Below, one piece after another: positions 1 to 17,713 of a DNA stretch of 61,451 bases. The DNA lies in the NCBI GenBank assembly GCA_019314525.1, contig JAFCZD010000026.1, positions 1-61,451 on the forward strand. The letters run 5' to 3'. The notes under the pieces are model-generated. The model searched no databases. It was not told the origin of the DNA and saw nothing but the letters and a program-made list of their open reading frames with translations. The position numbers were made by a program, and so were the translations under genes. Source of the DNA: Deltaproteobacteria bacterium (GTDB taxonomy: Bacteria > Myxococcota_A > Polyangia > GCA-2747355). How positions within the stretch are numbered: the first letter of the stretch is position 1; every line of letters begins with the position of its first letter.

Positions 1-1975
1 GGGGCCAGTGCAGCCAGGGTCACCTGTGCCATTGAGCTTGTAGTCGGTCTTGCCGTCGCTGTCGTTGTCGAGGCCGTCATCACACTCGGCGCTGCCATGC
101 TCATCGGTGTCATTATCAGAGCTGCAGCCCGGGTCGTTGGGGTAGTCCGCAAGGCCGTCGCCGTCGTTGTCCTGCCCGTCGCTGCAGGCGGCGTCACCCA
201 GCTCGCTGCTGTCTGTGGGGTCTGTGCATTGGCCATCGCCCGTGCCGTCGATCTTGTAGTCGGTCTTGCCGTCTTTGTCGTTGTCGAGGCCATCATCGCA
301 GGCCACAGAGCCCAGCTCGCTGGCGTCGGCAGGGCCGGCACAGCCTGGGTCTCCCGACCCATCTTTTTTGTAGTCTGTGGCGCCATCCTTGTCGTTGTCG
401 AGGCCGTCGTCACAGGCCACAGAGCCGCGTTCGTCGTTGTCTCCTGGGCCGCTACATCCCGGGTCGTCGGGCGAATCGGTGAGGCCGTCGTTATCGTTGT
501 CGACGCCATCGTCGCAGGCGGTGGAGCCCTTTTCGCTGGTGTCCAAGGGAGCGCTGCAGCCAGGGTCTCCAGAGCCGTCGGTCCTGAAGTCAATCAGCCC
601 GTCGCCGTCGTTGTCGGCGCCATCATCGCAGTGGGTGGTGCCGTATTCGCTGATATCGGTCAAGCTGGTGCAGCCAGGGTCTCCCAGCTCTGGCACGAGG
701 TTGTAGTCGGCCTGACCATCGCCATCGTTGTCGATACCGTCGTCACAGATCGCGATACCACGTTCGCTCGCGTCGGTGGGCGAGGTGCAACCTGGGTCTC
801 CGGAGCCGTCCATGCGGTAGTCGCTACGCCCGTCGCCATCGTTGTCGCTGCCATCGTCGCAGGCCCCACCCCCACGTTCGTCGTTGTCTGCGGGGCTTGT
901 GCAGCCTGCGTCACCACCGATGAGTTTGTAGTCGCTGCTGCCATCGTTATCGTTGTCAACGCCATCGTCACAAGCGGTGGTGCCGCGCTCATCGGTGTCT
1001 GAGACACTCACGCAGCCAGGGTCGCCGCTGCCGTCTTCTTTATAGTCGGCAGCGCCATCGCTGTCGTTGTCTTTGCCGTCATCGCAGACCCCAACGCCTG
1101 TCTCTGAGCTGTCTGTTGGAGAGCTGCAGCCAGGGTCTCCCGAGCCATCTTGCTGGTAGTCGACCTTACCATCGCCATCATTGTCGATGCCGTCGTCGCA
1201 GGCGCCAGTGCCCTTTTCAGAGGCGTCATCAGCGGCGCTGCAGCCTGGGTCGTTGGGATAGTCCGCGAGACCGTCACCGTCGTTGTCGACACCATCCTGG
1301 CAGGGGCCTACGCCTGTCTCTGCGCTATCTTCGGGGCCTGTGCATTGAGGGTCACCCGAGCCGTCAGCTTTGTAGTCGATCAGGCGGTCGTTGTCGTTGT
1401 CGATGCCATCATCGCAGGCGAGGCTTCCTGTTTCGTCCGTATCTTCCGGTCCAGCGCAACCTGGGTCGCCGCTGCCGTCGGCTTTGTAGTCTGCCAGCCC
1501 ATCGCCGTCGTTATCGATGCCGTCGTCACAGGCGATGGTTCCCTTCTCGCTGCTATCCGAGGGGCTCTCACAGCCTGGGTCGGCGTTGGAGCCGTGCCGG
1601 TAGTCAGCCTTGCCGTCGCCATCATTGTCAATGCCATCATCGCAGGGGAGGCTTCCCAACTCGTCTTCGTCGTCTGGCCCGTCACAGCCTGGGTCGTCTG
1701 GGTAGTCGATGGCGCCGTCGGCGTCGTTGTCGATGCCATCGTCACAGGCTGCGCCGCTGCTCTCGGTGTCATCATCCACGCCGCTACAGCCGGTGTCGCC
1801 ACTGCCGTCAGCTTGGTAGTCCGCCTTGCCATCACCGTCGTTGTCGCGCCCGTCATCACACGCGGTGGCCCCATGCTCGTCGTTATCACCAGCAGAGGAG
1901 CAGCCAGGGTCGTTGGGGTGATCGACAAGGCCATCGCCGTCATCATCGAGGCCGTTGCTGCAACTACACGCGCCA
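1..1975 (-). repeat. Imperfect tandem coding repeats (about 38-40 codons each) encoding the CDDGxDNDGDGxxDYxxDGSGDPGC modules.
   Basis: The motif gtcgttgtcgatgccgtcgtcaca... recurs on the plus strand at roughly 115-120 bp intervals. I counted at least 18 modules in the translation. Confidence 0.7.
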
Positions 1976-3384: not shown

Positions 3385-4361
3385 CAGAAGTTTCCTCGCA
3401 ATCCAATGCCCCAGACATGAGCGTCATCATCCTCATGTTCTTTGGCTTGGCCGAAATCCGTGAAGAAGAAGAGGGTGGTGGTAGCCGCTGCTGCGACCCC
3501 CGTGAGGGCCACGAAGACGTTGGTGAGCATGCGGCGTTGTGTGAAATCATCGTAGCCTTGCTCGGTGGGGTCACTCTCGTAATCATCACGCAGCCCCACG
3601 GTCTGAGCACCGAAGATGCCCACGACCGCGCCGAAAACCACGGTGGCTCCAACGGCGCCCCAAAACCACGCCTGGTGCAGCCCACGGCGGCGTGGCTCGA
3701 AGGTTTGAGGGCGGGAAGCAGGTTGGGGCATCATCACCACTTTGGTGCGCACAGCCTGGACGATCTTCTTGGGGCTGAGAGTGATCGACATGGAGCCGCC
3801 CAAAGAACTCTCGACGCTTGCGCGGGCTGGAGTGGCGCCTTCGCGTCGAACTTCGATGGCGTGACGCCCAGGGTTGATGGAGATTGTGCCAGGCGCCATG
3901 CCTGCCTTCTTTCCATCAACGAAGATCGTGCCGCCTCCACCATGGCTCTTGATTTCGAGCGTAGCCACACGCCTCTCCACCCCCTCAAGAGATTCACGGA
4001 CGCGCTCGGCCATCTTCGCTTTGGCGGCGCCTTCGTTGAGACAGCGTCGGTAATGAGCGGCGGACTGGATGAAGTCGTTCATATTCTCGTAGCAACGCGC
4101 GATGCTGCACTGCACGAAGAAGTGGGGGCGGAGCTTGTAGGCTTTGGTGAAAGCGGTGATGGCCTGGACGTAGCTGCGCTTTTTGAAGAGCCTTTTGCCT
4201 TGTTTGAACGCTCGCGCTGCCTCATGCTTCTTGCCCGCGTGGGCACTAGAGGCGATCAGCGCCACCACGAGGATCAACGTCCATCGCAAAAAGGAGGTAC
4301 AGGCTCTCATGGGGGACGTCCTCTTCCTGACCGCTGGCCGCGGGTAAAGCCGAAGCCGCAT
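3384..4361 (-). CDS. Membrane protein with a signal peptide, a TPR-like segment, a PEGA domain and two C-terminal TM helices.
   Basis: ORF 3384..4364. PEGA-like stretch TIFVDGKKAGMAPGTISINPGRHAIEV. TPR-like stretch YVQAITAFTKAYKLRPHFFVQCSIARCY. TM helix AWFWGAVGATVVFGAVVGIFGA. The ATG at 4361 overlaps the upstream kinase stop (TGATG). Its own stop overlaps the downstream lipoprotein ATG (TGATG at 3382..3386). Confidence 0.75.
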   Translation of the reverse strand: MRLRLYPRPAVRKRTSPMRACTSFLRWTLILVVALIASSAHAGKKHEAARAFKQGKRLFKKRSYVQAITAFTKAYKLRPHFFVQCSIARCYENMNDFIQSAAHYRRCLNEGAAKAKMAERVRESLEGVERRVATLEIKSHGGGGTIFVDGKKAGMAPGTISINPGRHAIEVRREGATPARASVESSLGGSMSITLSPKKIVQAVRTKVVMMPQPASRPQTFEPRRRGLHQAWFWGAVGATVVFGAVVGIFGAQTVGLRDDYESDPTEQGYDDFTQRRMLTNVFVALTGVAAAATTTLFFFTDFGQAKEHEDDDAHVWGIGLRGNF

Positions 4362-5941
4362 CAATCGTAGGGGCTGGCGAGGATATCAGCGTCGCCGAGC
4401 TTGCCCTTCTTCTTCTTCTTGCCACGTCGACGTTTGACTCTCTTGGCAGGCTTGTCTCGATTCAGGGCGATGACCCAGCCGCCGCTGCGTTCGTGCGGGA
4501 TCTCGATCTTGCGGCTCTTGTAGCCAGGAGCGCTGATCTCCAGCAGGCTTTGTCCGGCACTCTTGGGTTGTTCGATCTTCAGCGGATTCTTCACAGCTTT
4601 GCCATTTAGCACCAGCTTGGCGGAGAGCGGGGTGGCCGTGACGCTGATGGTGATCAGCTCTGGCGCGGTGTCGGCTATCAAGCGCTGGTCGGGGGAAACG
4701 ACGACCTTGGCGTCGGCTGTGAGGGCAACCTTCGCGTCACTCGCTCCACCGTTGAACAGGGTCAACGTGAGGCCCACGCCGAGGGCTGCGAGGGTCAACA
4801 GACCCGCCACGCCGAGCAAGGTCTTGCGTTGGCGTTTACGCAAGAGGCTTCCCATGGAGGCCTGGGGCAGTGAGAGGCCGCTGATCAGCTGCGCGTCCAT
4901 CACCTCGCTTACATCGGAGATATCCGCCTGCTGCAGCAGCCGCTTCTTCTCGCCAATGCGCTCCTCAAAGCAGTCCCTCATGAACTTTCCCACATCGGAG
5001 GGCAGGACGGGGTCACCTGAGTTGGCGAGATATTTCTCCAGCGCGAGCTGCATCTCCTGGGCTGTCTGGAAGCGATCGGCCATGTCGCGCTCGAGGGCGC
5101 GCATCACGATGGTCTCCAGCTCCTGGGGATACTCAGGAAAGACCGCCGAAGGGGGCGTGATATTGTGGAAGAGCACCTTGGAGATCTGGTCGGCCTCGGT
5201 GGCGGCCTTGAAGAGGCGTCGCCGGGTGCTGGCCTCGAAGAGCACGATGCCCAGGGCAAAGATATCAGAGCGTCGGTCGACACGTTTGGTGTCTTTGAAC
5301 TGCTCAGGGGCCATATAGGCGAGCTTCCCCTTGAGCTCCCCTTGGGTGGTGTGCAGGCTGCCGCGGGCGCGAGCCACGCCAAAATCTATCACTTTGGTGG
5401 CGCCCGTGTAGCTGATGATGATGTTTTGTGGCGAGACGTCGCGATGCACGACGTTGAGCAGCTCGCCCTCATCATTGTGCAGCTCGTGGGCAGCATGCAG
5501 CCCGGCGGCGGCGTCGGCGATGATGCGAGCGGCGATGCGCGGATCGGGCCGCGTCTTGCGCAGAATCGCCACCAAGCTCTCGCCATTGACGTACTCCATC
5601 GCGATGAAGTGGGTCTGCTCTACTTTGCCCAACTCGAGGATGTGCGCGACGTTGGGGTGGTCGATCCTTGAGGCGAGGCGGGCCTCGTCGATGAACATCT
5701 TGACGAATTCTTCTTGTTCGGTGAGGTGGCTGTGAATGACCTTTAGCGCCACGAGCTTTTCGAAACCCTCAGCACCAAAGAGCCGGCCAAGATAGAGCTC
5801 GGCAGAGCAGCTTATAGCGACCAAGGAGGCGCTTCTTGGGAAACGTCGCCTTCTGCTGAAAGAGCTGCGCCGCGCTATTGACCATTCACCGAGTCTCCCA
5901 CCCAAGATTATTCGCACATAGCTCGTGCCACCTCTCCGCAC
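4361..5941 (-). CDS. Ser/Thr protein kinase with a TM helix and a C-terminal PEGA-like domain. The N-terminus is apparently disrupted: the glycine-rich loop is missing and the frame shifts.
   Basis: Motifs VALKVIH, HRDVSPQN, IDFGVA and YMAPEQ. TM helix TLLGVAGLLTLAALGVGLTLTLF. The listed ORF starts at GTG 5941 with an Arg-rich, non-kinase-like leader. A different frame (ATG 5885) encodes a typical kinase N-terminus, MVNSAAQLFQQKATFPKKRLLGRYKLLCR, and stops at 5769. Confidence 0.65.
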   Translation of the reverse strand: MRRGGTSYVRIILGGRLGEWSIARRSSFSRRRRFPRSASLVAISCSAELYLGRLFGAEGFEKLVALKVIHSHLTEQEEFVKMFIDEARLASRIDHPNVAHILELGKVEQTHFIAMEYVNGESLVAILRKTRPDPRIAARIIADAAAGLHAAHELHNDEGELLNVVHRDVSPQNIIISYTGATKVIDFGVARARGSLHTTQGELKGKLAYMAPEQFKDTKRVDRRSDIFALGIVLFEASTRRRLFKAATEADQISKVLFHNITPPSAVFPEYPQELETIVMRALERDMADRFQTAQEMQLALEKYLANSGDPVLPSDVGKFMRDCFEERIGEKKRLLQQADISDVSEVMDAQLISGLSLPQASMGSLLRKRQRKTLLGVAGLLTLAALGVGLTLTLFNGGASDAKVALTADAKVVVSPDQRLIADTAPELITISVTATPLSAKLVLNGKAVKNPLKIEQPKSAGQSLLEISAPGYKSRKIEIPHERSGGWVIALNRDKPAKRVKRRRGKKKKKGKLGDADILASPYD

Positions 5942-11726: not shown

Positions 11727-13190
11727 TCAGGGACAGCCGTCACAGAGGATTGTCCAGTTGAAATTGGCGCGTAGCTCTTGGACTAGATTGCAATGCACAG
11801 CCGAGGGTGCTGCTGTGTTCGACAGATCGAGCGTCTTTGGCTCGGTGGAGTGGTTCCAGCGAGCGTTGTGGATGTCCTGGATGATGGTGTCAACGTCCCA
11901 CATGGACAGCGGGTTATTCGCTAGGCTGATCTCAGTGATGAGGGACAACCCTAACAGAGCGCCTGGCTCGTATGCTGTGAACTGATTGAGTTCCAGATGA
12001 AGTTCTTTCAGGTTCGTCAGCTGTGAAAGAGCGCGTGGTATCCCCCCAAAGAGGTTGTTCTCTTCGAGGTGGAGCTTCTGAAGGTTGGTGAGCTGCCCAA
12101 GCTCGGCAGGGATCGGGCCCTCGAGAATATTTCCTTCGAGACGCAAACTGTTCAGCGCGCCAAGCTGCCCAATCGTCGCTGGAATGGGCCCAGATAGCTG
12201 ATTGTAGCGCAACGAGAGGCTCTGCAGGTTTGTGAGGTGCCCAATGGTGGGGGGGATATCCCCCCAAAGATCGTTGTTGCCAAAGGTCACAGAGAGCAGC
12301 GACACGAGATCGGCGATCTCGGGAGGGATGGGTCCTGAAAGCTTGTTTGTCGCAAGATTGAGGTCTTCCAACTTTGAAAGTCGCGTCAGTTCCAGCGGGA
12401 TGTCGCCGTCCAACGCATTGTTGGAGAGGTCGAGCAGGGTCAAGTTGGCCAGGTCGCCAAGTTGTGGCGGGATAGGCCCCAACAATGCCGTGTTTTGTGC
12501 GTGGAAACTCGTGACCACCGAAGGACCATCGACGCTCGTGATGAGCACCTGCTTTTCGCCTTGTTGGGCGTAGAGGTGGTCTACTTTGTTGCCATTGATG
12601 GTGGTCCCATCACCCAAATCCCACTGCAGGACGCCACGGCTCACGATCGCTTCAGGGTCGAAATGAGACGGACCGAGCGATGTGGTCACCAGCACTAAGA
12701 TAACGCCACTTGGAAGACTCCCGTCGGGCCCAGGGAGGATGCTGTCGGCGCTGGGGATGATGCTGTCGGCGGTGGGGATGATGCTGTCGGCGGTGGGGAT
12801 GATGCTGTCGGCGGTGGGTGGGTTTGTGTCAGCAACCCAGACATCGGGCTCCACCTGTGCATCTCCGCCATCGAGTCCAGCGGTGCTATCGGCTGTGGTG
12901 TCAGCTGCCCAATCATCAACCTGGAAATCATCAAGCTGGAAATCATCGCCACCACTATCGAGACCAGGGGTGCTCTTGTCAGCTACCGCGTCGTTAGCCC
13001 GAAGGTCGTGCCATGTGTCGTGATCTAACCCCTCGAAGGATGGCGTGAAAGTGTCTGCGAGCCCACCGTCCACAGGATCGACAGGGATCGCAGGACTATA
13101 GGAAGCCAGCCCCTGGCAGCCCATGAGCACAAAGCTCAGCAGCAGTACGCTGCACGGGCGCAGGTGACGATCTCTGCCCAAATGGAACAT
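11727..13190 (-). CDS. Lipoprotein with a PTADSII heptad repeat, a PKD-like segment and eight 24-residue plant-specific-type leucine-rich repeats.
   Basis: Signal peptide plus lipobox [12 protein letters not shown] units such as [24 protein letters not shown] and [24 protein letters not shown] fit LxxLxxLxLxxNxLSGxIPxxLGx. Confidence 0.85.
12738..12821 (-). repeat. 21-bp in-frame tandem repeat, about 4 copies (encodes PTADSII).
   Basis: gatgctgtcggcggtggggat is repeated head to tail, with the first and last copies slightly diverged. Confidence 0.8.
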
Positions 13191-13246: not shown

Positions 13247-14017
13247 CTAGATCAACAAGCCGATCTCACGAGCATTTTCGACGATCGACGTGACCACTGA
13301 GAGGCTCAGCCTCGCTTGCTCTGCGGCTTGCTCTGCGGTGACCCCTTCAACACCCATCTTCAACGCGAAGAGCAGCGCATCGTTCGCCGGATAGAAGACC
13401 GCCATGTGGTCTCGCGGTTCACGGAAGACGAAGATGCGCTCAGGGGAGGGTGTTGTTGTTGTCGGCAGCGTGGGAATCGGGTCACCGTCCTCGCGAGCCC
13501 GAAAAGCCTTGAGCACCGCCGCCACAGGATAGGATAGCTCAAGGATCGCCAATGTTGGGTTGAGCTGTGGAGTTTCGAGGGTCGTCGCGACCTCGCGTTC
13601 ATCGGCGTAGCAGGCGAACTCCTGCCATTCCAGACGCGCCAACTCGACGAGGGCCGGGTTCAGGCCTTCATCTCCGGCGGTGATGCGCTCTTCCAGGAAG
13701 TCGGCGAACGATGCCACACAGGCGTTGAGCTCAAAGTCATGGGCTGGCCTCTCGTGAAAAAAGCGCTGGACCAACGCCTCCCAGCGCGTCTTTGGCAGCA
13801 GCGCTGCTACAGACTCATAGTTCGACGCCAGAGCGTCAATGATGGGGTCCTTGACGAAATCCTGGTAGGACATGAGGCAGGGGATGGTTTTGGGTTTCAC
13901 CCCGAGGCGTTGCGCGATCTGCTCTGGACTGGCGTTGCCTCGTAGCAGATCATGCATGGTTTCTACCACTGCCTGTAGTGAAGTGTCCTGGCATTGCACT
14001 TGTTTCGGCATCATCAT
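13247..14017 (-). CDS. DUF2063-type protein (HvfC/BufC/MbnC-like partner of DUF692 enzymes).
   Basis: It lies immediately after the DUF692 gene. The N-terminal half (YQDFVKDPIIDALASNYESVAALLPKTRWEALVQRFFHERPAHDFELNACVASFADFL) fits the DUF2063 pattern. Three consecutive ATGs sit at 14017..14009. GGAGGAG abuts the first one, so the third ATG (14011) may be the real start. Confidence 0.7.
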   Translation of the reverse strand: MMMPKQVQCQDTSLQAVVETMHDLLRGNASPEQIAQRLGVKPKTIPCLMSYQDFVKDPIIDALASNYESVAALLPKTRWEALVQRFFHERPAHDFELNACVASFADFLEERITAGDEGLNPALVELARLEWQEFACYADEREVATTLETPQLNPTLAILELSYPVAAVLKAFRAREDGDPIPTLPTTTTPSPERIFVFREPRDHMAVFYPANDALLFALKMGVEGVTAEQAAEQARLSLSVVTSIVENAREIGLLI

Positions 14018-14023
14018 CTCCTC

Positions 14024-14887
14024 CTACGCCGCCGAGGCGCGCGCACGACCAAGCGCCTGCGCTGCTGCATGGCGCACACGGTCATTCTCCTCGAGGAGCA
14101 CCTCCAGCGAAGGGATGTTGTTATCCCACTCCACCAGCGTCCAGGCAGTACCCAGTTGCAAGATGGCGTGCTGATAGAGCGCGAAGACCTCGGGGGCGAT
14201 ATGCGATCCGTGGGTGTCGATGATCATCTCGCCGGATGCGTCATGCCCGGCCATATGATATTGCAGCACCCGGCCAGTGGGCATACTCTCGATGAAGGCG
14301 TGGGCGTCGTAGCCATGGTTCGTGGCGTTGACGTAGACATTGTTGATGTCCAGGAGCAGTCCACAGTCGGCGCGGGTGACGACTTCGCGCACGAACTCCG
14401 CTTCGCTCATCTCTTTGCCGGGTAGTTCGAGATAGTAGCTCGGGTTTTCCAGCAGGAAGGGCAAGCGCACACGATCTTGGACCTGCTTGATCTTCTTCAC
14501 CACGTGGCGCACCGCCTCTTCGGTGAAGGGCAGGGGAATCAGGTCGTGATATTCCACGCCCCCATGGGCGGCCCAGCTCAGGTGGTCTGAAAACCATGGT
14601 GGGCGCACGAAGTCGATGAGCTGTGCGAGCTTTTCCAGGTAACGTTGGTTGAGTTCGCCGAGGCTGCCCAATGAGAGGGAGACGCCGTGGAGCACGATGG
14701 GTAGCCGCTCACGTGCCCGCTTCAGCACCTCCCGTGGGCGACCCCCGAAGGTCATGAAGTTCTCGCTGAGCACCTCGAGAAAGTCGACGCCAGGGTGGTG
14801 GTCGAGGATCTCATCAAAGTGTGGCCGGCGAAGACCAACGCCGAAAAGCTCTGTACTTTGTGTTTCTGCGGCTGGGCTCTTCATCAT
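14024..14887 (-). CDS. DUF692 family (MbnB/HvfB/BufB-like) multinuclear non-heme iron oxidase, TIM-barrel.
   Basis: FGVGLRRPHF...FLEVLSENF...LHGVSLSLGS...FSDHLSW...LLENPSYY...LLLDINNVYVNATNHG...QYHMAGH...IIDTHG matches the characteristic UPF0276/DUF692 motif series. Confidence 0.9.
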   Translation of the reverse strand: MMKSPAAETQSTELFGVGLRRPHFDEILDHHPGVDFLEVLSENFMTFGGRPREVLKRARERLPIVLHGVSLSLGSLGELNQRYLEKLAQLIDFVRPPWFSDHLSWAAHGGVEYHDLIPLPFTEEAVRHVVKKIKQVQDRVRLPFLLENPSYYLELPGKEMSEAEFVREVVTRADCGLLLDINNVYVNATNHGYDAHAFIESMPTGRVLQYHMAGHDASGEMIIDTHGSHIAPEVFALYQHAILQLGTAWTLVEWDNNIPSLEVLLEENDRVRHAAAQALGRARASAA

Positions 14888-14926
14888 CGGAGGCTTCCTT
14901 CAGGAACTGAGACGCAACACTAGTGG

Positions 14927-14955
14927 TCAAAACTGGGGCCCCGATGTGGGGCCCC
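14927..14955 (-). terminator. GC hairpin plus a short T run between the precursor and the modifying-enzyme genes (possible attenuator or partial terminator).
   Basis: GGGGCCCC (14935..14942) gatgt GGGGCCCC (14948..14955) gives an 8-bp self-complementary stem with a 5-nt loop. On the minus strand it is followed by AGTTTTGA. Confidence 0.4.
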
Positions 14956-15018
14956 GTTCACCTTATGCAGCGCAAACGGTGAGGAGCGCACTGCGACCTT
15001 TGGAGCGTTGTGGAAATT

Positions 15019-15267
15019 TCAGCTGCAGCTCTTCTTGCCGCACTTCTTGTCAGCGCCACCGCATTTCTTGTCAGCGCCCTTGCCCTTTTTGCCCTTTTTG
15101 CCCTTTTTCGCGGAGCCACATGAGCTCTTGCCACAGCTGAGGGCGGTACCCACGGCGCTCTTTCCCACGGCGGGGGTCGCCTGAGCGCTCTCCGCGTTGA
15201 GGGCAAGACCTGCAAAGGAAAATGACAGAGCGAGGGCGCCGGCTGAGAGTGTCTTTTTTAGGTTCAT
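15019..15267 (-). CDS. 82-aa secreted Lys/Gly/Cys-rich peptide; candidate RiPP precursor (HvfA/bufferin-like).
   Basis: ATG 15267 with AAGGAG 7 nt upstream. Signal peptide MNLKKTLSAGALALSFSFAGLALNAESAQA. Core TPAVGKSAVGTALSCGKSSCGSAKKGKKGKKGKGADKKCGGADKKCGKKSCS has 5 Cys (4 as Cys-Gly) and 15 Lys. The longer track ORF (to 15429) has an Arg-rich, implausible leader. Confidence 0.7.
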   Translation of the reverse strand: MNLKKTLSAGALALSFSFAGLALNAESAQATPAVGKSAVGTALSCGKSSCGSAKKGKKGKKGKGADKKCGGADKKCGKKSCS

Positions 15268-15488
15268 GTGAGGTCTCCTTTTTTGGCCCCGTGGGGCGTG
15301 AATCCTTCTGAATCGTCGGTGGCATGTTGTCGATGCGCACCTGATGTGTTGGTGGGTCGTGCTCGAAGCCACGAGATTACAGAGGCGTGGTCTTTTTTTG
15401 CGAGGACTCTGCTGGCCTGTTGTAGCCAACCAACACCTGTCGCAGCCAACACCTTGGCAGGCAGGCGCGGCGCGCCTACAATCCCCCC

Positions 15489-16691
15489 ATGGTGCGACTT
15501 GGCCTCATGTTTGTGTTCATCTCTTGCGTCGCAGCCCTGCCGGGCTGTTACATCTCCTCTTTTGATGACTCCACCCCGACCGATACCGACCAAGGTGTCG
15601 TGGAGTCCGATGGTGAGATCATCGTCGAGCCGGCCTATGGCGCTGAGGTGCGCATTGGACTGGGCGAGGATCCCGCCGGTTCAGAGGCTTTTGCCACCAT
15701 CGCCCCTGGGGGCAGCGTGACCTTCCATGGTGAGGTGCAGTGCTTTCCCGAGGGCGCCGTGTGCGAGATGGGCTGGACCTTCCCTGATGGCAAGGTGCCC
15801 GATACTCTCGAGCCGGGCGCGCGAACCTTCGCCGCGGGTTACCACCACATCGTGCTCACCGCGCGGACTGTGGGGGGCGAGGTGGTTGGCGAGGCCCACG
15901 CCTATATCGCCGCATGGACCGGTGAGCTTCGCGATGATTTCAACCGTGGCTCCATGGAGTGGGACCAGCGCGGCTGGGCGCACCCTGTTCGCCCTGACGT
16001 GGAGTATCTGATCAAGGACGAATGGCTCTACATCAAGCATGACATTCACGGACCAGGCTCCACCGGGCTGATGGCTTACCCCTCCATGCGTGACGCCCAT
16101 GTGGAGGTCACCGTGCGGCGTTATCCCAACCCACTGGAGATCCACTACATGGACGTGATCTTCCGCGCACATCCCCAACACCGCAACTATCGCTTCTATC
16201 GCGTGCGCGTCGATCAGAGCCAGGAAGACCAACAACAGGGGCTGCGCATCGCCATCTTCAAGGTCTACGACGAAGAAGACGAGCATGGGCTGTTGGTCAG
16301 CGATATCCAGCAGCCCGTGGATGCCTTCGACCAACTCTTGGAGTGTACGCAGCGTACGGACTGTGAGTCGCTGCCCGATGCTTGGGCCAAAAACTGCCAG
16401 CAGGGGCGCTGCGTACCGATTCAATGCCTTGGTTGCGCCGAGCTCGCCAACTTTGACCCCCCACGCATCCAAGACTTTCGCATCGTCATCGACTTTCGCG
16501 ACGAAGGCGGCCTCCCCACCTGGGATGTGCGGGTGGTGGACCCCCAAGACACGTCCACTGTCTTCATCGAGCAGATCGGCATCCAGGATACCAGCCCCAA
16601 CCCGCATCTCCACGCGGGCCTGGTGGGCTTGGCTCAGTTTGACCTCGAGACCTACTTCGACGACTTCTACGTGAGGAGCCTCGACCCATGA
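15489..16691 (+). CDS. Lipoprotein, uncharacterised (PKD-like N-terminal part, jelly-roll/LamG-like C-terminal part suspected).
   Basis: Signal peptide plus lipobox FISCVAALPGC. Long clean ORF with coding-like composition. The stop overlaps the next gene's start (ATGA at 16688..16691). Confidence 0.65.
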   Translation: MVRLGLMFVFISCVAALPGCYISSFDDSTPTDTDQGVVESDGEIIVEPAYGAEVRIGLGEDPAGSEAFATIAPGGSVTFHGEVQCFPEGAVCEMGWTFPDGKVPDTLEPGARTFAAGYHHIVLTARTVGGEVVGEAHAYIAAWTGELRDDFNRGSMEWDQRGWAHPVRPDVEYLIKDEWLYIKHDIHGPGSTGLMAYPSMRDAHVEVTVRRYPNPLEIHYMDVIFRAHPQHRNYRFYRVRVDQSQEDQQQGLRIAIFKVYDEEDEHGLLVSDIQQPVDAFDQLLECTQRTDCESLPDAWAKNCQQGRCVPIQCLGCAELANFDPPRIQDFRIVIDFRDEGGLPTWDVRVVDPQDTSTVFIEQIGIQDTSPNPHLHAGLVGLAQFDLETYFDDFYVRSLDP

Positions 16692-17713
16692 GCTGCTCTG
16701 TCTTCAGCCATCAGCGTGACAACCTCATTTCGACCAGCCGCCTTAGGGCGTTGTTGCTCACCATCGGCGTCTTGGGCATCGCTTGCAGTAGCGATGACCC
16801 CGTGCTTCCTGATAGCGCGCCCATGGAGCTTGGTGAACCTGATGCTCCAGACCAGGTCGACTTTGGCCCCGATATGGGCGCCGAGGTGCCCCTATCATGG
16901 GCCACCGTCAGCGCAGGCTCTTTCACCATGGGATCACCCGCGACAGAGCTTTGTCGCGTCTATGAAGAGGTGCAACACCCGGTGACCCTGACGCACGACT
17001 TCGAACTCTCCTCCACGGAGATCACCCAGGCGCAGTTCTTTCGCCTCATGGGCTACAACCCTTCGTTCTACGAACTCTGCGGTTCTCAATGCCCTGTGGA
17101 GAACACCAGCTGGCACGAGGCGGCTGCTTTGTGCAACGCGTTGTCGACGGAGGCGAGCCTGACGAGCTGCTACAGCTGTGAGGGTGTTGGCCCCGCCGTG
17201 CGCTGCACGCCCACCACGGCCAGCGCGGGCGCTGGCATCTATGCCTGTGAAGGGTATCGGCTGCCCACGGAGGCTGAGTGGGAATACGCCTACCGCGCTG
17301 GTGCTACCACGACCTATTACAACGGCGACATCCTGCGCTGCGTCGATGTGCGCAACGAGGCCGATTTCCCGAACCTAGAAGACGACCCTTTGCTGGACAA
17401 GGCAGCCTGGGCCATCGCCTGGTACGTCAGCAGCGCGGACGGTCAGATACGCGAGGCGGGGCAGAAAGCGCCCAACAGCTCGGGCCTCTACGATATGGCC
17501 GGGAATGTCTGGGAGTGGTGCAACGACTGGCGTGCGCCTTATCCTACAGCCGCCGTAAGTGACCCCGCAGGCCCCGCCACCGGTACCTATCGCATGCTGC
17601 GCGGGGGCGCTGCGGACAGCGCCGCGATGTATCTGCGTGCGGCCTATCGCCTGCAGCACTCTCCTGACTATCGCGACGGCTTCACCGGCATCCGAGTGGC
17701 TCGTACTCGTTGA
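16688..17713 (+). CDS. Formylglycine-generating-enzyme (FGE-sulfatase/SUMF1) domain lipoprotein.
   Basis: Lipobox LGIACS. Motifs FTMGSP, HPVTLTHDFELSSTEITQAQF, NTSWHEAAALCNALS, GYRLPTEAEWEYAYRAG, GLYDMAGNVWEWCNDW, RMLRGG and GFTGIRVAR. Confidence 0.85.
   Translation: MSCSVFSHQRDNLISTSRLRALLLTIGVLGIACSSDDPVLPDSAPMELGEPDAPDQVDFGPDMGAEVPLSWATVSAGSFTMGSPATELCRVYEEVQHPVTLTHDFELSSTEITQAQFFRLMGYNPSFYELCGSQCPVENTSWHEAAALCNALSTEASLTSCYSCEGVGPAVRCTPTTASAGAGIYACEGYRLPTEAEWEYAYRAGATTTYYNGDILRCVDVRNEADFPNLEDDPLLDKAAWAIAWYVSSADGQIREAGQKAPNSSGLYDMAGNVWEWCNDWRAPYPTAAVSDPAGPATGTYRMLRGGAADSAAMYLRAAYRLQHSPDYRDGFTGIRVARTR

Follow-up and report, generated by a model that had tools for sequence, protein, structure and literature searches.

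A probable bufferin/oxazolin-type peptide cassette with a diverged, HvfA-like precursor in a Myxococcota-like genome

Among the peptides that are made on ribosomes and modified after translation (RiPPs) whose cysteines are processed by MNIO enzymes, the closest described relatives of the system reported here are the HvfABC/oxazolin system of nontypeable Haemophilus influenzae and the bufferins. HvfA carries the motif AEGKCGEGKCG, with Lys-Cys-Gly units, Cys-x4-Cys spacing and a glycine after each cysteine; modification changes the mass by -4 Da per motif cysteine, and each cysteine pair binds one Cu(I) (PMC11252979). The product is a 5-thiooxazole, required for copper binding, both in the bufferins (PMC11626156) and in oxazolin (bioRxiv 10.64898/2026.07.17.739211). 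Here we describe a three-gene cassette in a 61,451-nucleotide stretch of DNA, referred to as the window, from the metagenome-assembled genome (MAG) of a Deltaproteobacteria bacterium (contig JAFCZD010000026.1). We consider it likely that this is a RiPP cassette of the bufferin/oxazolin type, whose peptide would have its cysteines converted to 5-thiooxazoles, leave the cell through the Sec pathway and chelate copper.

This reading is carried by the genes present and their order, the assignment of both enzymes to families, the conservation and synteny of the small open reading frame (ORF), and its homology to HvfA-like precursors, each of which we observed. Direct reading of the whole stretch shows three genes on the minus strand in the order precursor, MNIO, DUF2063 partner, with 131 bp between precursor and MNIO genes and 6 bp between the MNIO stop and the start of the DUF2063 gene. 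Their features are as follows.

15275..15280, minus strand: Shine-Dalgarno-like AAGGAG, 7 nt upstream of the precursor ATG; read directly.
15019..15267, minus strand: precursor gene, 82 aa, stop codon 15019-15021; from the ORF and its translation, homologues and the family profile.
15178..15267, minus strand: predicted Sec-type signal peptide coding region, residues 1-30, with a predicted signal peptidase I site between AQA and TP.
14024..14887, minus strand: MNIO (DUF692) maturase gene, BufB-type, 287 aa; from Pfam and NCBIfam profiles.
13247..14017, minus strand: DUF2063-type partner gene (PME-type 1, BufC/HvfC-like), 256 aa; from a Pfam profile.

The precursor translates as MNLKKTLSAGALALSFSFAGLALNAESAQATPAVGKSAVGTALSCGKSSCGSAKKGKKGKKGKGADKKCGGADKKCGKKSCS (82 aa, 15267..15019, minus strand). 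By eye and by hydropathy, its N-terminus consists of the n-region MNLKK, an 18-residue hydrophobic stretch and the AQA/TP site. The 52-aa core contains 15 Lys, 2 Asp and 5 Cys (45, 50, 69, 76 and 81), the latter in the contexts SCG, SCG, KCG, KCG and a terminal KSCS. Two Cys-x4-Cys pairs are present, SCGKSSCG (Cys45/50) and KCGKKSCS (Cys76/81). A longer reading from a TTG start would give 136 aa; the 82-aa start is preferred, supported by the ribosome-binding site and by the N-termini of aligned homologues. The ORF is annotated at NCBI as hypothetical protein JRH20_03125 ('Deltaproteobacteria bacterium' MAG). A consensus scan called no sigma-70-like promoter upstream of it on the minus strand. 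The small ORF is a real gene, beyond what chance would produce: it has a ribosome-binding site and homologues that share its signal peptide and cysteine motifs, and members of its family lie beside MNIO genes.

The MNIO protein matches the Pfam family PF05114 (MbnB_TglH_ChrH) over profile positions 2-261 of 263 (352.5 bits, cut-off 25, E=1.6e-105) and passes the NCBIfam equivalog model for BufB (NF050167, MNIO_BufB; 337.6 bits, cut-off 310). It falls under the cut-offs for ApyH, MbnB and ChrH (MbnB, 60.8 vs 325). The closest solved structure is the HvfB-like 3BWW (E=8.9e-52), an MNIO 72% identical to HvfB (2026 preprint). Family motifs are present at LHG (66-68), SDH (100-102), LLEN (145-148), LDINN (179-183), HMAGHD (211-216), IDTHG (223-227) and VEWD (252-255). 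Mapped by alignment to the 3BWW and MbnB structures rather than by structure, the putative iron-ligand motifs are HG at 68, DH at 101-102, LLEN at 145-148, D180/N183, H211/H215/D216, D224-x-H226 and E253. The site-3 positions, whose residues are essential in HvfB (HvfB preprint), are among the conserved residues in the alignment to 3BWW. An exact-sequence look-up of the MNIO gave no match.

The partner passes the Pfam model PF09836 (DUF2063; 41.7 bits, cut-off 27.2). Its length of 256 aa matches the range typical of PME-type 1 partners (250-260 aa), the type that accompanies signal-peptide precursors (PMC12452194). A search of 5.8 billion proteins gave only two homologues, and its candidate RRE-like C-terminal domain shows similarity to the N-terminal region of SbtM. 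The AlphaFold model has a mean predicted local distance difference test (pLDDT) score of 52, with residues 132-225 below 50; Foldseek matched it to nothing in the PDB at E<=0.001, and sequence and profile searches of the PDB returned nothing useful. A preliminary description of this DNA had proposed an MNIO, DUF2063 and signal-peptide-precursor RiPP cassette of HvfABC/bufferin type, and the BufB score, the DUF2063 signature of the partner and the conservation of the small ORF next to orthologous enzymes bear this out. The 82-aa ORF, its Shine-Dalgarno sequence and signal peptide, the 15 lysines, the cysteine contexts and the 131-bp and 6-bp gaps also lie where that description had placed them.

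To delineate the precursor family, we built a profile from 12 relatives and searched 1.84 billion representative proteins exhaustively. The search returned 61 clusters at E<=0.001, 18 of them at E<=1e-10, nearly all of 70-110 aa. Common to the members are the signal peptide MxLKKTLSxGxLALSLSFGGLALGA and a motif, (E)KGxDx(K/S)CG-A-G-S-CG, present in two or three copies with linkers between them whose charge varies widely. In the alignment of 12 relatives, C45, G46, C50, G51, C76, G77 and C81 are invariant or nearly so. Two 89-aa homologues are 48-49% identical to the window peptide. In about half of the close relatives, the hydrophobic region is instead followed by a lipobox-like x-G-C, and such peptides are probably lipidated.

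The family can be connected to HvfA by profile comparison. Of 67 profile matches, 14 hit the NCBIfam model 'KCGExKCG_twice' and 17 hit the HvfA model, at E<=6e-4. On NF050137, the core member P0011 scores 27.1 and passes the cut-off of 19.5, while the precursor of locus L007 lies just below it at 17.4 and P0003 scores 11.6. Alignment of the family (A2) to HvfA-like proteins (A4) with hhalign gave 98.4% probability and E=1e-14 over 46 columns covering both motif units; although the A2 profile served to collect the A4 sequences, these match the NCBIfam HvfA models independently. Because the cysteine design of HvfA is kept, the profiles align, relatives match the HvfA models and P0011 passes, we read the window peptide as a sub-threshold divergent member of the oxazolin/Buf_EGKCG group, and not as the 'undescribed precursor class' suggested in the preliminary description.

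Synteny links the family to its enzymes. Among the 13 family members with flanking DNA, 12 adjoin an MNIO gene, as expected from the earlier proposal that the small ORF would be conserved beside orthologous enzymes. The two 89-aa homologues each lie ~110 bp upstream of an MNIO orthologue. A genome and metagenome scan with the window MNIO gave 15 loci, and a small-ORF homologue lies just upstream in 5 of the 8 with MNIOs at >=50% identity. In two loci (L004 and L006) the sequence ends too close to the MNIO gene for the presence of a precursor to be judged. Locus L005, with a close MNIO orthologue, carries an ECF sigma/anti-sigma pair in its place, and the 4 kb available upstream contain no precursor. 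Exact-sequence look-ups placed a precursor directly before an MNIO gene in L019-L021 (P0016), L022/L023 (P0010), L024 (P0011) and L027 (P0017). The closest MNIO found, at 70% identity (L020), is paired with P0016, the closest precursor, whose linker is Lys-rich as well.

Precursor and MNIO genes point the same way in L007 and L013 but are transcribed divergently in L012 (precursor at 1766..1470, minus strand), L008 (3842..3567, minus strand) and L014 (1523..1248, minus strand). The literature describes the order precursor, MNIO, partner as strictly conserved. Surveys that take only the preceding co-oriented ORF would therefore miss these divergent precursors. An invertible element at the divergent loci was rejected, as no flanking inverted repeats were found and L012 has only a terminator-like hairpin. 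Stand-alone precursor genes are known for true bufferins too, and one orphan precursor (P0014) occurs here, at 4001..4279 on the plus strand of L025/L026; the next gene encodes a 1137-aa protein dissimilar to MNIO and partner.

The related loci show further variation. In L008, from a Polyangia MAG, MNIO and DUF2063 domains form a natural fusion of 548 aa (3962..5608, plus strand; PF05114 at residues 17-276, PF09836 at 335-401); HvfB and HvfC needed artificial fusion for a stable active complex (2026 preprint). In L007 (5566..6210), L013 (4679..5287) and L022 (5983..6579), all on the plus strand, the gene after the DUF2063 gene is YceI-like and occupies the usual position of DoxX in bufferin clusters. 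Genes for ECF sigma factors are found near the cassettes in L007, L022, L005 and L012. A literature search for MNIO together with YceI found no paper. The closest cassette stands directly after GatD/GatE-type amidotransferase genes (L019 1464..4846, L020 972..2375, L021 910..2313), on contigs of 68% GC. This gene pair is typical of archaea.

Where the MNIO is more distant (39-45% identity), the precursor is of another type. The L017 precursor is a BufA2-like 12-Cys protein just under the 60-bit cut-off (59.8 bits), and L011, a Flavobacteriales MAG, has an EGKCG-repeat precursor. In Polyangiaceae loci with MNIOs of 39-42% identity, the precursors are lipoprotein-like and 155-169 aa long (L009 3472..3981, L010 3486..3992 and L018 2415..2882, plus strand). 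They have the same two Cys pairs (SCSANGCG ... SCGAGTCG), with a ~100-residue Pro/Ala/Thr-rich linker between them, and this long linker points to free linker evolution.

For the mechanism we rely on analogy with the characterized relatives, from which the chemistry, the order of modification and export, and copper as the metal are carried over. The 82-aa precursor would be made with its Sec signal peptide. In the cytoplasm, before export, the iron-dependent MNIO and its DUF2063 partner would oxidize the cysteines within C-G-x-x-x-C-G/S to 5-thiooxazoles, each with a mass change of -4 Da. The preliminary description had cited heterocycle/thioamide chemistry, which has since been reassigned to 5-thiooxazole for the bufferins (PMC11626156) and oxazolin (bioRxiv 10.64898/2026.07.17.739211). 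After Sec export, signal peptidase I would cut the leader in the window's version. In the periplasm, each modified pair (45/50 and 76/81, perhaps helped by 69) would chelate one copper ion and buffer copper stress; the window peptide would thus offer about two canonical copper sites.

The spacer between the precursor and MNIO genes may add a regulatory step.

14929..14955, minus strand: GC-rich hairpin GGGGCCCC-ACAUC-GGGGCCCC then UUUU, in the 131-bp precursor-MNIO spacer; from RNA folding.

The spacer RNA folds at -49.1 kcal/mol (z = -2.4), and strong stem-loops 3' of the precursor stop codon are also present in most related loci, among them L001, L003, L013 and L012. A consensus terminator scan did not call the spacer hairpin. 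Together these stem-loops suggest partial termination, which would probably let the precursor transcript outnumber the enzyme transcripts.

Several observations weigh against a copper-binding, 5-thiooxazole-bearing product. MNIO enzymes catalyze several different reactions (PMC12452194), so the chemistry cannot be read from sequence alone. The window peptide matched no curated precursor model in Pfam or NCBIfam, even at E<=10, including DUF2282 (Buf1), BufA2 (NF050166; Buf2), NF050137 (KCGExKCG_twice, cut-off 19.5) and NF050188 (HvfA, cut-off 95), in keeping with the divergence from DUF2282-type bufferins and HvfA that had been ascribed to it earlier. The MNIO scores 285.6 bits against a cut-off of 360 for HvfB, and the partner 53.7 against 142 for HvfC. 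A C-terminal RRE-like domain of the partner is a candidate, for which structural confirmation failed (pLDDT 52). Within the peptide, the Cys69-x6-Cys76 spacing is atypical, and the last Cys precedes Ser, not Gly. The genes within ~4 kb of the cassette include no DoxX (BufD) gene, which agrees with the earlier statement that none is adjacent; the scan with the DoxX model was confined to these genes, and DoxX is frequent, not obligatory, in bufferin clusters. By tblastn, the window holds no counterparts of the YceI-like, ECF sigma or anti-sigma genes of related loci. No copper-resistance gene was found among the nearby genes scanned, and with no neighbor pointing to copper, the choice of this metal follows from family membership alone.

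The same cassette and enzymes could therefore have a different output, namely another cysteine modification, another metal (e.g. Au, Hg, Zn or Cd) or a redox role. We regard this as unlikely. The 2025 survey does suggest roles beyond copper, from MerC fusions and gold-induced operons, alongside the diversity of MNIO reactions, but it also places bufferin- and oxazolin-associated MNIOs in one similarity cluster (PMC12452194), and the window MNIO passes the BufB equivalog model. Likewise, the window lacks any copper-related neighbor that we could find, and related loci carry YceI-like and ECF sigma genes instead of DoxX, unlike the canonical bufferin set; the substrate motif, however, is that of HvfA, whose product and Cu(I) binding were measured.

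A second alternative concerns the lysines of the core, which are encoded in part by two tandem repeats.

15080..15108, minus strand: 9-bp tandem repeat x3.2, copies 100% identical, coding the (KKG)n polycationic linker; from Tandem Repeats Finder.
15038..15078, minus strand: 21-bp tandem duplication, 2.0 copies, 95% match, coding GADKKCG twice; from Tandem Repeats Finder.

The 21-bp duplication adds Cys69, which is absent from relatives, and the odd Cys-x6-Cys spacing; relatives have a single unit (alignments A1 and A2). The perfect 9-bp repeat indicates that the Lys run is a recent expansion. Net charge is ~+12 to +13 in the window peptide and in P0016, against a family median of ~+1 and values down to -13; the Lys-rich linker is common to only a few close relatives such as P0016, and linkers elsewhere in the family are acidic, mixed or Pro/Ala-rich. 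Conservation in the family falls on the signal peptide and on the four Cys/Gly positions, not on charge. The polycationic linker and the fifth cysteine are thus best understood as traits of a small sub-clade, derived from two recent tandem duplications, and not as family features. The preliminary description had cited the polycationic core when suggesting a possible new precursor class, but the repeats and the family charges show that it is no class feature.

The same observations bear on the possibility that the peptide is primarily membrane- or surface-active, as an antimicrobial, as a factor in predation or by anchoring to anionic polymers of the envelope, with the cysteine modifications secondary. 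In favor of such a role stand the 15 Lys in a 52-residue core, which give a net charge of ~+13, and the Myxococcota-like genome. Myxococcota include predators, and the closest relative P0016 retains the Lys-rich linker. Linker charge is nevertheless unconserved across the family, the window's Lys run is the product of a recent repeat expansion, conservation falls on the Cys motifs, and many relatives look lipid-anchored, which would be ill-suited to a diffusible toxin. We consider a primarily surface-active peptide very unlikely.

That the small ORF is not the substrate at all, being a chance ORF or an unrelated secreted peptide while the MNIO pair acts on something encoded elsewhere, is hardly credible and is largely refuted: spurious ORFs of similar length are frequent in the 60% GC window, P0014 has no MNIO gene beside it and L005 has no precursor in the available upstream sequence, but the ribosome-binding site, the conserved signal peptide, the near-invariant Cys/Gly positions, the adjacency to MNIO genes in all but one of the 13 members and the precedent of stand-alone bufferin precursors essentially exclude it, above all through synteny.

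The wider neighborhood consists, within ~4 kb of the cassette, of genes for an LRR/PKD lipoprotein, a NUDIX protein, a PKD lipoprotein and an FGE-sulfatase-domain protein. An Rfam scan of the window found no RNA family. The FGE-sulfatase gene (16688..17713, plus strand), 1.4 kb from the precursor gene, encodes a lipoprotein-like protein with a formylglycine-generating enzyme (FGE)-like domain. Fusions of the type Buf1-cytochrome c-FGE are known, and FGEs themselves are copper enzymes. As a copper-linked member of the cassette, this gene was ruled out because it is not conserved beside related cassettes, and its proximity is probably a coincidence. Downstream of the cassette, the LRR/PKD lipoprotein (ORF 11727..13190) contains a tandem PTADSII(x4) peptide repeat at ~12678..12761 on the minus strand.

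Taken with the related loci, the window cassette might belong to an unnamed 'mini-oxazolin' subfamily of ~60 clusters with an architecture and accessories of its own and, in the window sub-clade, tethering by the Lys linker; as a joint proposal this is tentative and, on balance, doubtful. Its members have been seen only in uncultured genomes and metagenomes, the loci with an organism name being Myxococcota or 'Deltaproteobacteria' MAGs. Its peptides would have two or three isolated Cys-x4-Cys copper sites and freely evolving charged linkers, with about half of the close members apparently lipid-anchored. YceI-like and ECF sigma accessories would stand in place of DoxX, with the precursor sometimes divergent and one MNIO-DUF2063 fusion. 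If true, the Lys-rich linker of the sub-clade would tether a copper-binding peptide to anionic envelope or prey surfaces, a localization or function undescribed for bufferins; even so, the subfamily would only vary a known theme.

The cassette would extend the copper-binding peptides that MNIOs make and Sec exports by a Myxococcota-like branch, and the results illustrate that peptides missed by the HvfA and bufferin models can be tied to the oxazolin design through profile comparison. With only two Cys-x4-Cys sites and a dispensable linker, the family could serve as a compact natural substrate for studies of Cys-Gly recognition by BufB/HvfB-type enzymes, and the natural fusion in L008 mirrors the engineered HvfBC fusion. 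The picture of the field is unchanged, the 2025 survey having already predicted many such unclassified precursors.

With respect to known systems, we regard the cassette as a diverged member of the bufferin/oxazolin family and not as a new kind of system. It resembles methanobactin MbnABC in that an MNIO and a partner make copper ligands from Cys of a ribosomal peptide; methanobactin differs in its MbnC-type partner, its leader peptide in place of a Sec signal peptide and its oxazolone/thioamide product, and the similarity to MbnB is weak. With the bufferins BufABC(D) of Caulobacter vibrioides and others, it shares a BufB-passing MNIO, a PME-type 1 partner, a signal peptide and the order precursor, MNIO, partner, as well as the expected 5-thiooxazole product and expected role in periplasmic copper buffering (PMC11626156). 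Unlike the bufferins, it has a precursor unrelated to Buf1 (DUF2282) or Buf2 (BufA2; BUF_6/12Cys), no DoxX within ~4 kb and no sigma/anti-sigma pair in the window.

The HvfABC/oxazolin system (Buf_EGKCG/oxazolin group; NF050137, NF050188) is nearer in design. As here, its precursor is ~80-95 aa long with a Sec signal peptide, its target Cys lie in K-C-G-x-G-x-C-G pairs and a gene for a DUF2063-type partner comes after its MNIO gene; profile comparison shows the two precursor families to be homologous, and the HvfB-like 3BWW is the solved structure closest to the enzyme described here. In contrast, the window precursor, MNIO and partner all miss the HvfA, HvfB and HvfC cut-offs. The motif is (E)KGxDx(K/S)CGAGSCG here and AEGKCGEGKCG in HvfA, and two or three isolated motif units with variable charged linkers replace the 17-residue repeats of HvfA. 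HvfABC also differs in its DoxX, for which no gene lies within ~4 kb here, in its Pseudomonadota hosts, as opposed to Myxococcota-like MAGs, and in the lipobox-like sequences of many relatives of the window peptide.

Finally, among the annotated ORFs before 'mega-cluster' MNIOs, Antoine et al. 2025 (Microb Genom, PMC12452194) found hundreds that are small, contain Cys and fall into no class: they have 1-18 Cys and a predicted signal peptide, lie immediately upstream of an MNIO of the bufferin cluster and lack a Buf1, Buf2, EGKCG or CxxxxC signature. The window locus fits this description exactly. That survey left such ORFs ungrouped; the present analysis defines a family of ~60 clusters and connects it with the HvfA group.

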